Sequence record: PV296018.1
DNA: 41,011 nucleotides
Source: Enterococcus phage fHoEfa03
Direction: 5' to 3' (one strand)
In this document: positions 1,476-41,011 of the stretch, piece after piece
Layout: each line of letters begins with the position of its first letter
Numbering within the stretch: position 1 is the stretch's first letter
The notes under the pieces: generated by a model
The model's database searches: none
What the model was told of the DNA's origin: nothing
Seen by the model: only the letters and a program-made list of their open reading frames with translations
Translations under genes and position numbers: made by a program

Positions 1476-1482
1476 GATTTTG

Positions 1483-1491
1483 TGTTATAAT
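1483..1491 (+). promoter_or_regulatory. Extended -10 promoter TGtTATAAT (TTTTGTGTTATAAT) immediately after terS.
   Basis: Perfect TGnTATAAT. An identical tttgtgttataat occurs at 14279-14291. Confidence 0.45.
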
Positions 1492-1557
1492 GTATTTATG
1501 TAAAAGATATTCTATATTATTTGTATAGTATAATAATAGCGGGTATTATTATACAGG

Positions 1558-1640
1558 CGCAACTACTCCAATAGTTGCGGACATGTTAGCTAAAGTGTTG
1601 TTATACAGAAGGTCCGCTAACTGTATAACAACACTTTAGC
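1558..1640 (+). other. Structured non-coding segment: an 8-bp hairpin at 1558-1579 plus a perfect 20-bp stem (gctaaagtgttgttatacag / ctgtataacaacactttagc) with a 12-nt loop at 1589-1640.
   Basis: Exact reverse complements read directly from the sequence. No ORF spans this region. Confidence 0.6.
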
Positions 1641-1670
1641 ATTAAAGAATGGTTGCTGTGCGACCAATTG

Positions 1671-1725
1671 ACTTAGGTAAGTTTGTTATCCCCTTTGGAT
1701 AAACTCATGACCTAAGTCTTTTTAT
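1671..1725 (+). terminator. Intrinsic terminator or attenuator: nested hairpin acttaggt...acctaagt followed by CTTTTTATTT.
   Basis: 8-bp outer stem at 1671-1678/1710-1717, inner stem ttatcc/ggataa, T-run at 1718-1726. Confidence 0.5.
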
Positions 1726-1728
1726 TTG

Positions 1729-1737
1729 TGCTATAAT
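1729..1737 (+). promoter_or_regulatory. Extended -10 promoter TGcTATAAT just upstream of the terL RBS.
   Basis: tttgtgctataataatgataaggaggtaatacatATG. Confidence 0.45.
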
Positions 1738-1758
1738 AATGATAAGGAGGTAATACAT

Positions 1759-3483
1759 ATGAATAAGATTGATTATGTACAAGACTATATAGACTACGTA
1801 AAAGAAAATCAAATACCAATAGGTAATAAAATCAAACAAGCTATTAGACGACATGAAAAAGATTTAGAGAAGTCAAAAGACCAAGACTATCCATATTACT
1901 ATGACCCTAAAGAAGCATTAGAACCAGTGGTTTTTATTGAAATGCTACCAGACCCAAAGACACGCAAAACAAATAAGCTAGCTAAGTTCCAGAAGTTTAT
2001 TATTGCAATGATATATGGGTGGCGCAAAAAGAAAAACGGAATGCGCAGATTCAGAAAAGTATATATCAGTTTAGCACGTAAGAACGGAAAATCTATTCTG
2101 GTTGCTGGTATCTCACTATACGAGTTTCTATTAGGTCAATATCCACAGGCAAGCCGTCAGATAGTCGCCGCCGCCAACACCAAAGACCAAGCAGGTATTG
2201 TATTCAACATGTTAAAATCACAGCTAAAGGCATTGCGTGCAGTAAGTGATGGAACAAGGAAAGTAACCAAAGTTAATAAGAAAGACATTGAACACTTAGA
2301 AGATGAATCAACGGTTAAGCCACTATCAAGTGATGCAGATAGCTTAGACGGACTAGACGTGCTATGTGGTGTACTTGATGAGTATGGAGAAGCTAAAAGC
2401 ACAGCCATGATTGAGGTATTAGAAAGTTCACAGTCACAACAATTACAAGGTTTAATTTTGATTATTAGTACAACAACCAAAAACTTGAATGGACCAATGC
2501 ACAGCATAGAATACCCATTTATAACTAAGCTACTTAATGAGGAAGTGGAAGCTGATGCTTACCTTGCATTGTGTTGGGAAATGGATAGCCTAAGTGAAGT
2601 AGATGATGAAGCTAACTGGATTAAGAGCAACCCATTATTTGAGAATGCACAGTTACATGAAACAATGTACGAACATAAGGTTAACTCATTAGCAGAGTAT
2701 AAGGCTAAGGGTGACATGAGTGGTTGGCTAACTAAAGAGATGAACTTCTGGGTACAATCATCACAAGACAGTTTCATTGATAAAGAATCTTGGGAAGCTG
2801 TTAAACAAACACAACCGTATGACATAAAAGGTAGACCAGTTTATATAGGGCTGGATTTGGCACGTACAGGCGATATGACGGCTGTTAGTTGGGTGATACC
2901 TATTGCAGAGGAACGCAAGCTACTTCTTGACAGTCACGCTTTTATAGCCTCTGTGGGCGGTATTGAAGCTAAACAGATAAAAGATAAGATACCGTATAGA
3001 CAGTATGAGAACTTAGGACTAGTAAACATCAGTCAGCGACCAGATGGTTTGATAGACCATGAAGATATGTGCGAATGGATAAGAGAGTTCATAACAGAGT
3101 ATGACTTAGACCTACAAGGTATTTACTATGACGGACACCAAGCAACACCATCTGTAATCAACTTAAGCAAGGACTTTCCAGACAAACTAATTGAAGTACC
3201 ACAGCGCATCCAGTATTTAAATGCACCTACAAAGTACTTACGTGATGCAATTATCAAGGGTGAAGTGATTCAAACAGATAACCCACTACTAACTAGAGCG
3301 GTATATAATGCTATTATGCGTGAGTTTGCGGACAATATAGCTATTGAAAAGGCTATGAATCGTAACAAAATTGACCCTATAGATGCCTTAATTAATGCAA
3401 TGAGTGAAGCAATGTACTTTGATTATGAGTATATTAGCTTTAAAGAACTGATTGAAGAAGGTAAATTTGGATTTGGTGTATAA
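1759..3483 (+). CDS. terL: Terminase large subunit.
   Basis: ~575 aa. Position, size, and ATPase plus nuclease-type architecture fit terL. The likely true start is the ATG at 1759 (MNKIDYV) behind RBS TAAGGAGG; the ORF-track start at 1726 is probably too far upstream. Confidence 0.85.
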   Translation: MNKIDYVQDYIDYVKENQIPIGNKIKQAIRRHEKDLEKSKDQDYPYYYDPKEALEPVVFIEMLPDPKTRKTNKLAKFQKFIIAMIYGWRKKKNGMRRFRKVYISLARKNGKSILVAGISLYEFLLGQYPQASRQIVAAANTKDQAGIVFNMLKSQLKALRAVSDGTRKVTKVNKKDIEHLEDESTVKPLSSDADSLDGLDVLCGVLDEYGEAKSTAMIEVLESSQSQQLQGLILIISTTTKNLNGPMHSIEYPFITKLLNEEVEADAYLALCWEMDSLSEVDDEANWIKSNPLFENAQLHETMYEHKVNSLAEYKAKGDMSGWLTKEMNFWVQSSQDSFIDKESWEAVKQTQPYDIKGRPVYIGLDLARTGDMTAVSWVIPIAEERKLLLDSHAFIASVGGIEAKQIKDKIPYRQYENLGLVNISQRPDGLIDHEDMCEWIREFITEYDLDLQGIYYDGHQATPSVINLSKDFPDKLIEVPQRIQYLNAPTKYLRDAIIKGEVIQTDNPLLTRAVYNAIMREFADNIAIEKAMNRNKIDPIDALINAMSEAMYFDYEYISFKELIEEGKFGFGV

Positions 3484-3485
3484 AG

Positions 3486-3512
3486 AGTGCTTTAACTAGC
3501 ACTCTTTTTTCT
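3486..3512 (+). terminator. Intrinsic terminator after terL.
   Basis: agagtgct-ttaa-ctagcactct stem followed by TTTTTTCT. Confidence 0.6.
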
Positions 3513-3513
3513 A

Positions 3514-3717
3514 TTGTTTTGTGGTAAAATGGGGTATATAGGAGGGGTAAATATGCAAAATCCGGTATTGTTAGTAGTAATTTTCTACGTTTTAGGTATG
3601 CTATCACTAGTCACAGCAATGTTTTTCACTGGTTTAGTAGCTGGTTTAGTAGCCTTAGCAGTAGCATTATTAATTCCATCAGTAATCTTATACAAAGAAT
3701 TGGGAGAAGGTGAATAA
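3514..3717 (+). CDS. Small membrane protein (67 aa, two predicted TM helices).
   Basis: Hydrophobic segments LLVVIFYVLGMLSLVTAMFF and LVAGLVALAVALLIPSVIL. GGAGG RBS. Confidence 0.5.
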   Translation: MFCGKMGYIGGVNMQNPVLLVVIFYVLGMLSLVTAMFFTGLVAGLVALAVALLIPSVILYKELGEGE

Positions 3718-14252: not shown

Positions 14253-14283
14253 AGACAACCCCTTTACAAGGGTTGTCTTTTGT
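14253..14283 (+). terminator. Intrinsic terminator after the TMP.
   Basis: agacaaccc-ctttacaa-gggttgtct stem followed by TTTGTG. An extended -10 TGtTATAAT follows at 14283-14291. Confidence 0.65.
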
Positions 14284-14317
14284 GTTATAATACTAGTATA
14301 GTAAATTATAAAGGAGA

Positions 14318-38939: not shown

Positions 38940-39383
38940 TTATAATTGTTTACTATAGCAACCGTTTATTTTAACACCAATGAAACCATATTGTGGTTCT
39001 CCGTTTACTCGTAAGCGTGTTCTTTCTAAAATATTTCCACCGTCTTTTCCTACCTCTTTAAATAGTCTCATAAATAATTCATATGAAATATCTGAGTTGT
39101 TCCAATCGTTGAAGTCATCACGCAACATTTTACTGCTCGTAAATACTGGTTCATGTTCACTGTAGTATACTTTTCTTGCTGTACACCATTGTTTGACACG
39201 TTCTTTCATATGTCTGTTAAACTCTGGTGCTTTTCGCTCTTGTAACACCTCATACTCTGTAATAATGTAATGCCACTCACCTTGAATAGTGTGTGAGATA
39301 ATAGTTGTTTCTTCACCTAATGATTCAATGTATTCTGTTACGTTGTTCATTCCACAAAATTCTTTGATTGTCTTTTTCTTCAT
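38940..39383 (-). CDS. First early gene product, hypothetical (147 aa).
   Basis: ORF with an ACGAGGAGGAAATATTATG RBS. Lies immediately downstream of the early promoter and the iteron array. Confidence 0.5.
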   Translation of the reverse strand: MKKKTIKEFCGMNNVTEYIESLGEETTIISHTIQGEWHYIITEYEVLQERKAPEFNRHMKERVKQWCTARKVYYSEHEPVFTSSKMLRDDFNDWNNSDISYELFMRLFKEVGKDGGNILERTRLRVNGEPQYGFIGVKINGCYSKQL

Positions 39384-39480: not shown

Positions 39481-39890
39481 AAATTTGTTTAATGTAACGC
39501 TTTGTAACACTTATTGTAACGCTTTGTAACGTTTAAGTGTTACGAAAAAAACCTATATAAACATTGATATATCAACGTTTCAAACCAAGTGTAACACTTG
39601 TAACGCTTGTAACGCTTTTTTTCAAGTTCTATACCCCACACCTATATACTATATTATTTTATTAATTATATTTCTATAGAGTTGTTTTAAAGCGTTACAA
39701 GTGTTACACTTATAAGATAACATAGTATAAAGATTGGTTTATCAACGTTTATAGGTGTAACACTTAGACCAACATGGTTATGTATAAGCGTTACATAAGT
39801 GTTACACTTATTGGTTTCTACAAGCTGTATCAATTGATATCACTATGTTTTAGTTGAAAATACTAAGTGTTACAAAGCGTTACACTTCAA
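39481..39890. repeat. Iteron array: 8-9 copies of GTAACGC(TT) / (AA)GTGTTACAC motifs in both orientations, two copies of TTTATCAACGTTT, and a TCAATTGATATCA palindrome. Candidate origin of replication and/or operator array.
   Basis: Units include tgtaacgctttgtaacac, ttgtaacgctttgtaacg, aagtgtaacacttgtaacgcttgtaacgc, aagcgttacaagtgttacactt, aggtgtaacactt, aagcgttacataagtgttacactt and taagtgttacaaagcgttacactt. Non-coding, AT-rich flanks. Confidence 0.6.
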
Positions 39891-40319: not shown

Positions 40320-40523
40320 ATGAACATGGAGGGCATGACAGACAAGCAACTACTATCTCATACTAAGTTAGAGTTAGTATCATACATCAGACAGTTAGAG
40401 CAAGCAATGGTTACCAACACATCAGACACAACAGAACAACCAACAACAGAACCAACAACCAAAGCTAAAGTATCTTATGACATCTTTAATAGTAATACTA
40501 ACAAAGATATGTGGGGCTTCTAA
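40320..40523 (+). CDS. Hypothetical protein (67 aa) with a Thr/Pro/Glu-rich linker.
   Basis: ORF with a GGAGGGTATACTATATG RBS. A/C-rich codon usage unlike the rest of the genome. Confidence 0.45.
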   Translation: MNMEGMTDKQLLSHTKLELVSYIRQLEQAMVTNTSDTTEQPTTEPTTKAKVSYDIFNSNTNKDMWGF

Positions 40524-40894
40524 TGCCTAAGCGACGGTGTAAGGTTGCACACTGCAGGGAGTATGTAGATATACCTGAAGTGTACTGTGAACAACACAGA
40601 GGACAACAAGCAAAGACATACAACAAGCAAGTAAGACATTCACCAGATAACAAGAAGTATGCGGACTTCTATGCATCAACACAGTGGCGAAACGTTAGAG
40701 CAAGAAAGCTATCAATGAATCCAATGTGTGAAGTATGTAATGCAAGCATAGCAACCATAGTGCATCATAGGCAAGAGGTACGGACCGCAATGGGTTGGGA
40801 ACATAGGTTAGATATAGATAATCTAGAAAGTATCTGTCAAGAGTGTCACAACAAAGAAGAACATTCAGCCAGCTTCCGCCACCGCAAGGGGTGA
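40511..40894 (+). CDS. Packaging-associated HNH endonuclease (zinc-finger HNH of the type paired with terS/terL in cos phages).
   Basis: Cys pairs CKVAHC / CEQH and CEVC...CQECH with HH (IVHH). ~127 aa. Lies at the genome right end adjacent to the putative cos. Confidence 0.7.
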   Translation: MGLLMPKRRCKVAHCREYVDIPEVYCEQHRGQQAKTYNKQVRHSPDNKKYADFYASTQWRNVRARKLSMNPMCEVCNASIATIVHHRQEVRTAMGWEHRLDIDNLESICQECHNKEEHSASFRHRKG

Positions 40895-40914: not shown

Positions 40915-41011
40915 TTTTAAAAAGTGGGAGGGAGTACCAAAATAAAATGGGAGGGAGAGCTAAATTTTTTAGACCCCCCCTCGATTTTTTGGTGGAACTA
41001 ATTCATCACCG
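40915..41011. repeat. Right-end cos-proximal sequence: direct repeat TGGGAGGGAG x2 (40915-40924, 40938-40947) and G/C-rich GACCCCCCCTCG.
   Basis: Read directly. Non-coding tail after the HNH gene. Local GC is unusually high for this genome. Confidence 0.35.

Follow-up and report, generated by a model that had tools for sequence, protein, structure and literature searches.

Among the known kinds of genetic element are morons, small RNAs encoded by phages, and RNAs that mimic antitoxins. Morons are autonomous promoter-gene-terminator cassettes located between conserved late genes in lambdoid and HK97-like phages. AbiF RNA is an antitoxin that neutralises the HEPN toxin AbiF in trans by direct binding (PMC12373285), and RNA antitoxin mimicry is a known route of phage escape, exemplified in the review PMC13064643 by the pseudo-ToxI of phage PhiTE; the same review, referring to Rince 2000 and Zilberzwige-Tal 2025, describes a hairpin in the cohesive-end (cos) region of lactococcal phage sk1 that inhibits AbiF, yet is unlike AbiF RNA. 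The locus analysed here is the 283-nt gap (positions 1476-1758) that separates the genes of the small and large terminase subunits, terS and terL, in Enterococcus phage fHoEfa03 (PV296018.1), a member of Efquatrovirus, a genus of Enterococcus siphophages; the window denotes the whole stretch of DNA analysed, 41,011 bases, which constitutes the complete genome. The gap very probably specifies a real, selected RNA structure on the + strand. It is interpreted here, with a confidence just short of even, as an accessory, moron-like non-coding RNA gene of ~225 nt, the product of which would act in trans as a decoy or sponge.

Compared to the described systems, the locus resembles phage morons in displaying its own predicted promoter and terminator between two conserved adjacent genes, an empty site in relatives, dispensability and apparent horizontal exchange; the cassette is present or absent between the same genes, the site being empty in relative L025 and the cassette reduced in AL2 and L030. 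The cargo, in contrast, is a chain of RNA hairpins and not a protein gene, the gap comprising no open reading frame (ORF) of at least 20 aa and none with a ribosome-binding site (RBS), and the cassette is internally modular. With AbiF RNA (RF03085) and pseudo-ToxI the locus shares short promoter-proximal hairpins followed by a terminator, and the cassettes of some relatives carry at the 5' end an abiF-like hairpin with the loop CGCCUCUUAACAAUGCG and no toxin gene alongside; it differs in that the window lacks such a hairpin, the matches in relatives score below the Rfam gathering cut-off, and the tandem repeats of ToxI are missing. The sk1 hairpin is similarly placed next to packaging genes in a cos-type siphophage of a lactic-acid bacterium, but it sits at cos and not between terS and terL, and the inhibition of AbiF is demonstrated for sk1, a comparable function of the window element being hypothetical. 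Finally, the pRNA of phi29 is likewise a structured phage RNA encoded beside the genes of the packaging machinery, whereas the present element has no Rfam match, belongs to a cos phage with a TerS/TerL terminase, and is missing from relatives that share the terminase.

Architecture and covariation of the gap

The original prediction described this stretch as a structured non-coding segment bounded by its own promoter and terminator, and the sequence agrees with it, with a promoter-like site at the 5' side and a terminator-like hairpin followed by a T-run at the 3' side. The claim that the gap holds no plausible ORF likewise stands, since the short ORFs present, of 8-18 aa, all lack a Shine-Dalgarno sequence; moreover, insertions and deletions among the gaps of relatives do not preserve a reading frame. 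The gap displays a folding energy of -93.4 kcal/mol compared with -58.0 +/- 4.7 kcal/mol for shuffled sequences (z = -7.6; none of 200 shuffles folds as well), and the predicted transcript, 1498-1725, reaches z = -8.6, its minimum-energy fold comprising separate hairpins in a row that are closed by a short helix between the 5' and 3' ends. All the elements originally listed, namely two extended -10 sites, an 8-bp hairpin, a perfect 20-bp stem with a 12-nt loop and a nested hairpin with a T-run, are found where they had been placed, and two further hairpins, A (1528-1554) and D (1651-1665), complete the chain. All the features described below lie on the + strand.

The putative promoter P1 comprises a TG-extended -10, TGTTATAAT (1483-1491), which matches the sigma-A/sigma-70 extended -10 consensus TGnTATAAT, and a -35-like TACACA (1463-1468) embedded in the 3' end of terS, with a 17-nt spacer between both elements. 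Assuming the usual -10 spacing, the RNA would start near 1498 with a 5' leader (1498-1527), which in this phage is a 'window-type' allele, the majority of relatives having another allele, AAAACGCCTTCCAGATGATTTGTAG. Hairpin A consists of a perfect 11-bp AU-rich stem (1528-1538/1544-1554) and the loop GCGGG, and relatives show compensatory changes from AU to GC or UA at two of its pairs. Hairpin B (1558-1579), the most widely retained internal module, is formed by the 8-bp stem CGCAACTA/TAGTTGCG (1558-1565/1572-1579) and a 6-nt loop, with both sides changed in five of the eight pairs among 16 distinct sequences. The conserved and mostly unpaired linker GGACATGTTAG (1579-1589) follows, corresponding to nearly invariant alignment columns, and its junction is the point at which variable modules are inserted in relatives.

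Hairpin C (1589-1640) comprises a perfect 20-bp stem (1589-1608/1621-1640) and the conserved 12-nt loop AAGGTCCGCTAA (1609-1620). The perfect stem is thus present as predicted, but it is not the conserved state: in all relatives having hairpin C, the ninth pair as counted from the AAGTGTTGT core (position 1601) is followed by a bulge of 11 nt, GAGGnnnKnnG, and precisely these 11 nt have been lost from the window, between 1601 and 1602. Judged from this comparison of sequences, the perfect helix, which had prompted the idea of an RNase III processing site, is a derived state produced by a lineage-specific 11-nt deletion, unique to this phage among the records searched, no second bulge-less hairpin C occurring in 50,697 phage genomes.

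Hairpin D (GGTTGC-TGT-GCGACC) comprises 6 bp with a conserved U.G wobble and is found in most, not all, relatives. The predicted terminator E (1670-1727) displays (i) a base stem, GACTTAGG(T)/(A)CCTAAGTC (1670-1678/1710-1718), (ii) a replaceable inner hairpin (TTATCC, 1686-1691; GGATAA, 1697-1702), and (iii) the T-run TTTTTATTT (1719-1727), i.e. the stable stem with a U-tract directly behind it, on the strand that is transcribed, by which intrinsic terminators are recognised. A terminator pattern scan omits E because the enclosed loop exceeds 8 nt. The base stem, invariant and 8-9 bp long, and the T-run recur in every filled-gap relative, around interiors of five different kinds, including a minimal canonical form in L030, GACTTAGGTATAACCTAAGTCTTTTTT. 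The arms of hairpin C are unique within the window, and covariance models of C and of A with B each detect a single copy in the window, located in the gap.

Covariation was analysed in MAFFT alignments of 15 distinct sequences for hairpin C and 16 for hairpins A and B. In hairpin C, 99.6% of the cells are paired and 9 of the 16 pairs have changed on both sides, the corresponding values for A and B together being 98.2% and 7 of 14. The observed pairing and covariation were reached by 0/500 column shuffles for C and 0/500 for A and B, and pairing falls to 24-57% in both alignments when partner columns are slid. At least five versions of the upper stem of hairpin C are found, each of them fully complementary (TATACAG/CTGTATA, TATGTGG/CCACATA, TATGCGA/TCGCATA, CGTTTGA/TCAAACG and TATGCGG/CCGCATA). 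While the stems vary, the loop of C (ArGGUCCGCYAA), its bulge and the linker remain near-constant, and this combination of covariation and near-invariant loops indicates purifying selection on structure. Stems that are kept paired, together with constant loops and bulges, are typical of protein-binding RNA hairpins, and an action in trans is therefore proposed.

Three other pairings were considered and rejected, including (i) a pseudoknot between the loop of C (GGUCCGC) and GCGGAC after hairpin B, for which the variants of L011, L020, L024 and L019 do not covary, as judged by eye; (ii) an antiterminator pairing of 1440-1451, in terS, with 1665-1676, which is not conserved in relatives having CCAAAAGACTTAGG and is consequently treated as chance; and (iii) an anti-Shine-Dalgarno pairing between the loop of B and the terL RBS, which involves 4 bp only and a loop that is not conserved.

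The minus strand of the gap folds about equally well (z = -8.0), and the strand is consequently undecided by thermodynamics alone. The + strand is indicated by (i) the T-run after hairpin E, found on the + strand and not on the - strand; (ii) the orientation of the promoters, all of them on the + strand; (iii) the single-side changes in stems, comprising 9 G.U cells versus 2 A.C cells; and (iv) the conserved U.G wobble of hairpin D, which would be a C.A mismatch if read on the - strand.

P1, taken as 1480-1491, is a member of a phage promoter family, TTGTGNTANAAT, with five exact sites in the window versus 0.49 expected; every site is intergenic and lies on the + strand (184-195, 1480-1491, 1726-1737, 3519-3530 and 14280-14291). 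At the sites starting at 184, 1726 and 3519, the T-run of an upstream terminator-like hairpin extends into the promoter, with terminator-promoter junctions outside the gap at 150-195 and 3482-3530. Given these promoters and the T-runs running into them, the structural genes appear, at the sequence level, to be organised into short transcription units insulated from one another, the RNA cassette among them. The second promoter originally proposed to drive terL is also found: the putative P2, TTGTGCTATAAT (1726-1737), includes the -10 TGCTATAAT (1729-1737), conserved in all relatives, and precedes the terL RBS, AAGGAGG (1744-1750), and ATG (1759-1761), which are conserved together with P2 across all relatives, the empty-site L025 included.

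As an accessory RNA gene, the locus would operate as follows. P1, a host-type TG-extended -10 promoter, would drive an RNA of ~225 nt in which hairpins A to D, arranged in a chain, fold independently of each other; terminator E would end this RNA just upstream of the promoter and RBS of terL. The hairpins would present their conserved loops to a binding partner, acting in trans; the likely partner would be an RNA-binding host factor, plausibly an abortive-infection (Abi) toxin with an RNA antitoxin, as in type III toxin-antitoxin (TA) systems and AbiD/F. The specific decoy or anti-defence function, argued by analogy with the mimics introduced above, is put forward tentatively.

Modular content of the gap among relatives

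The comparison comprised ~35 terS-terL gaps from GenBank phages, IMG/VR contigs and metagenome contigs, six of the relatives being contributed by the metagenome scan, which otherwise returned mostly chance matches. The order of terS and terL is identical in all of them, and the gap spans 44-603 nt. The comment in the original prediction that nothing of this kind is standard at the locus holds in general, but within Efquatrovirus the gap is the rule, as seen in these relatives. L025 represents the empty site, with 44 nt comprising the terS stop, a small terminator hairpin, TTTGTGTTATAAT, and the RBS before terL. Filled sites share a common layout of P1, a variable chain of hairpins, a terminator with a constant base stem and a T-run, and P2 with the RBS; TGnTATAAT occurs at the start of the gap in nearly all sampled filled-gap relatives, Ec-ZZ2 (L017) being without it.

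In the window, the leader is followed by modules A to E, and other phages display, in addition, 5' hairpins, a second unit of terminator and promoter, or extra modules, designated X, Y, Z, V and W. AL2 retains B and E alone, without A, C and D; P1, A and B are missing from Ec-ZZ2, A and C from EF-M80, and hairpin A from LY0322. No internal module is common to all viable isolates, the one constant being a terminator with the terL promoter after it. Because terL always retains its own promoter and RBS, the cassette is, as far as these sequences tell, unnecessary for terL expression. The attenuator tuned to terL that had been suggested is unlikely, the same terL promoter and RBS being found at gaps of 44 or 603 nt and no internal hairpin being universal.

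One 56-nt allele of hairpin C is identical in EFRM31 (L001), Efm 3-10 (L008) and G01 (L009), the terS DNA of which is 74-89% identical, and this points to module exchange or very strong constraint at the sequence level. EF-M80, 98% identical to the window across most of the first 4.2 kb, was considered as a case of identical flanks around a different gap and dropped, its local flanks being 81-87% identical to the window. In the gap of Q69, positions 463-490 (L014 1060-1087), in the spacer between the second terminator and the third promoter, show a 28-nt exact match (E = 1e-3) to megaplasmids of Ligilactobacillus salivarius, where it lies in unannotated intergenic DNA at one to three places per record; this segment is absent from the window.

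Rfam 15 does not include this RNA family, with its exchangeable modules and its constant location between terS and terL, and no description was found in the literature searched. The 4227 covariance models of Rfam 15 gave no match in the whole window at the gathering threshold or at E <= 1; when restricted to 1400-1800, they returned generic long-hairpin matches far below threshold (STnc540, 23.7 versus 38 bits; miRNA precursors), and in 13 relatives only sub-threshold abiF-like matches and none for the modules of the window. Neither the window nor six relatives contain a tRNA or tmRNA recognised by ARAGORN. A BLAST search with the largest gap variant against 72,556 plasmids gave no Enterococcus match, and the pattern of hairpin B and linker matched 185,579 species-representative genomes at two places, both chance matches in GC-rich coding DNA. 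Among phages, 114 records match the window; in nearly all deposited records checked the gap is unannotated, and in a few a short hypothetical ORF is drawn across it.

At least nine Efquatrovirus records, RioGrande among them, have the abiF-like hairpin immediately downstream of P1, as do contig L110 and Enterococcus phage dArtagnan, which is unrelated (RioGrande, L013 521-556; L110 5739-5774, - strand; dArtagnan, L158 1495-1529). Its loop, CGCCUCUUAACAAUGCG, is conserved, appearing as CACCUCUUAGCAAUGUG in L110, and its outer stems differ by compensatory changes. AbiF RNA, defined in RF03085 as a 37-nt hairpin with the conserved loop CCUCUCAACGAUGC and a score of at least 37 bits, is the best Rfam match of the hairpin, and the only one in L110, with 31.1 bits (E = 0.024) in RioGrande, 20.5 in L110 and 19.9 in dArtagnan. 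AbiF RNA is located upstream of an Abi_2/AbiF toxin gene, whereas in the relatives these hairpins stand between terS and terL, with no Abi gene annotated alongside. BLAST matches of the hairpin in Bacillus and Staphylococcus phages were not confirmed by the covariance model. Separately, Bacillus phage phiNIT1 carries a skipping-rope RNA (RF02924; L156 2492-2562; 46.8 bits, above gathering) inside a tRNA cluster.

The dArtagnan genome (LR991625) comprises a terS-terL cassette of 607 nt (L158 1380-1986), the sequence of which is unrelated to that of the window but the layout of which is identical, with the promoter TTTTGTGTTATAAT, a structured RNA (z = -4.1), a terminator with a run of seven T, TATGCTATAAT, an RBS and terL. 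The covariance models of the window hairpins, R1 and R2, have no match in this cassette.

A broader proposal, more doubtful than the decoy function itself, is that the terS-terL gap of Enterococcus siphophages could be an RNA anti-defence island, the recombining modules of which would each neutralise a different RNA-binding Abi toxin, either an AbiD/F-type HEPN RNase or another type III TA toxin. The abiF-like hairpin of the relatives would then be the first recognisable module, and hairpins A-D would be decoys for toxins with as yet undescribed antitoxin RNAs.

Weighing of alternative roles

Several observations weigh against the interpretation of the gap as a trans-acting accessory RNA gene. 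The promoter, the terminator and the RNA ends are sequence predictions, and the folding energies of the + and - strands across relatives differ by a mean of -2.4 kcal/mol with mixed signs, the + strand not being consistently favoured. No host RNA or locus like hairpins A-D was found in the plasmids or, for the pattern of B and linker, in the species-representative genomes. All abiF-like matches lie below the Rfam gathering score of 37, and the hairpin itself is absent from the window, with no Rfam match at E <= 1 in 41 kb, so that the abiF evidence concerns the type of locus and reaches the window phage only by analogy. The window has lost the conserved bulge of hairpin C, and module C may therefore be altered or inactive in this phage. 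Finally, no terminator lies between terS and P1 in the window; the segment is thus also the 3' untranslated region of the message that covers terS and the HNH endonuclease gene upstream of it (HNH-terS), which fits a cis role in stability or processing.

The main rival is accordingly a cis-acting transcript architecture, in which the hairpins would stabilise the 3' end of the HNH-terS message and provide sites at which RNase III or RNase Y processes it, and E with P2 would insulate terS from terL, setting their ratio. Transcripts of terS must enter the segment, as no terminator precedes P1, and a terminator followed by a promoter is the sole feature found between terS and terL in every relative, the empty site included, with similar junctions recurring at 150-195 and 3482-3530. 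Such insulation is, however, satisfied by a minimal terminator of 20-30 nt, as in L025 and L030, and does not call for 5-12 hairpins; hairpins serving stability could do without constant sequences in loops and bulges; the segment is equipped with its own promoter, of the class used for the genes of the phage; and the module content varies freely, whereas the terL signals do not.

Regarding processing, a perfect helix of ~20 bp is the textbook minimal substrate of RNase III, and the stem at 1589-1640 reaches this length (at least 20 bp, about two turns of double-stranded RNA), whereas in relatives the 11-nt bulge interrupts the helix. The bulged form of the relatives recalls in turn the T7 R-sites, ~50-nt intergenic hairpins of late transcripts with two stems parted by an internal loop. 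Unlike these, the window element displays its own predicted promoter and terminator, conserved loops and a mosaic content. Altogether, a cis-acting architecture is regarded as unlikely, and it is the alternative to be taken most seriously.

Processive antitermination by an RNA of the HK022 put type, in which A and B would modify RNA polymerase to read through E and later terminators of the structural region, is a good deal less probable. As in put, two adjacent stem-loops, here conserved, covarying and 3 nt apart, lie between a promoter, which they directly follow, and a terminator, and several terminators lie downstream in the late region, e.g. at 3482-3507. Unlike in the put system, the downstream gene, and indeed each downstream unit, has its own promoter, and the hairpins are dispensable, viable isolates lacking A (AL2, LY0322, EF-M80), P1 together with A and B (Ec-ZZ2), or everything (L025). 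In addition, the variable modules between B and E are left unexplained by this role, and no similarity to the sequence or model of any Rfam antitermination RNA was found.

Also to be considered is the origin of the hairpins as functionless recombination debris, left by repeated insertions and deletions near a homing endonuclease gene. The gene at 492-1001 encodes an I-HmuI-like homing HNH endonuclease with NUMOD4, HNH_3 and NUMOD-like domains, of a kind that promotes local gene conversion, and the locus is mosaic, with individually dispensable modules. Compensatory substitutions in three hairpins and near-invariant loops nevertheless reveal purifying selection on structure, and the promoter and terminator are conserved, which makes this explanation very improbable.

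A role at the DNA level, as a cos or packaging (pac) site, an array of binding sites for the terminase small subunit, or an inverted-repeat replication origin, is largely refuted, although both strands fold equally well and the location between packaging genes would suit it. The genome termini of IME-EF4, with a 9-nt 3' overhang, have been experimentally mapped (PMC4445525). The first 20 bases of the window are the reverse complement of the IME-EF4 terminal sequence GAGATTCGTTTAAGCGAAAG, and the end of the window (41003-41011) is TCATCACCG, the 9-nt 3' cohesive overhang of IME-EF4; cos therefore lies at the window ends, ~1.5 kb from the gap, and the gap is not cos, contrary to one of the original suggestions. 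Furthermore, the stems tolerate G.U and rarely A.C, hairpin D conserving a U.G wobble, viable relatives are found that lack the element or retain little of it, and the gap contains no iterated direct repeats. Of the four options first offered for the segment (attenuator, small stable RNA, RNase III processing site, and packaging or cos structure), a small stable RNA fits best, the attenuator being unlikely and the packaging or cos structure refuted.

Lastly, that the RNA is an anti-CRISPR, or imitates the crRNA or tracrRNA of the type II-A system of enterococci, is extremely improbable: the bulge of relatives, GAGGCAGUCCGUAU, weakly resembles what we take to be the nexus of the S. pyogenes tracrRNA, AAGGCUAGUCCGUUAU, and hairpin A of some relatives has GTTTAGAAT or GTTTTAGAA, as presumably found in the E. 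faecalis repeat, also a weak likeness, but no Rfam CRISPR repeat (CRISPR-DR) or tracrRNA model matches, the order of parts is unlike repeat:anti-repeat-nexus, the resemblances are missing from the bulge-less allele of the window, and covariation shows selection on the stems and not on their sequences.

Genome setting and implications

The gap is flanked by terS (1002-1475; Pfam Terminase_4) and terL (1759-3483), the latter with TerL_ATPase and TerL_nuclease domains. In place of the homing HNH gene upstream of terS, many relatives have other small genes. A second, different HNH gene (40511-40894), of the classic cos-associated type (PF01844), adjoins the right end of the genome. The region 39699-39811 comprises three copies of 16-17 nt (AAGTGTTACACTTATAA) in alternating orientation, spaced by ~30-35 nt, and more palindromes occur at 39559-39580 and 39074-39091; these elements may be repeats of an operator or origin-like type.

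Efquatroviruses belong to the Enterococcus phages that are most frequently isolated as therapy candidates, and a conserved RNA gene in their packaging module would have been overlooked. Even without a decoy function, the locus provides a new, covariation-backed RNA family with an unusual modular architecture and a clean empty-site control for genetics. If the hairpins do act as decoys, the module content of the gap would help to set which strains a phage can infect, and the locus would amount to a small natural collection of RNAs that inhibit abortive-infection systems, a form of counter-defence known to date from very few cases.

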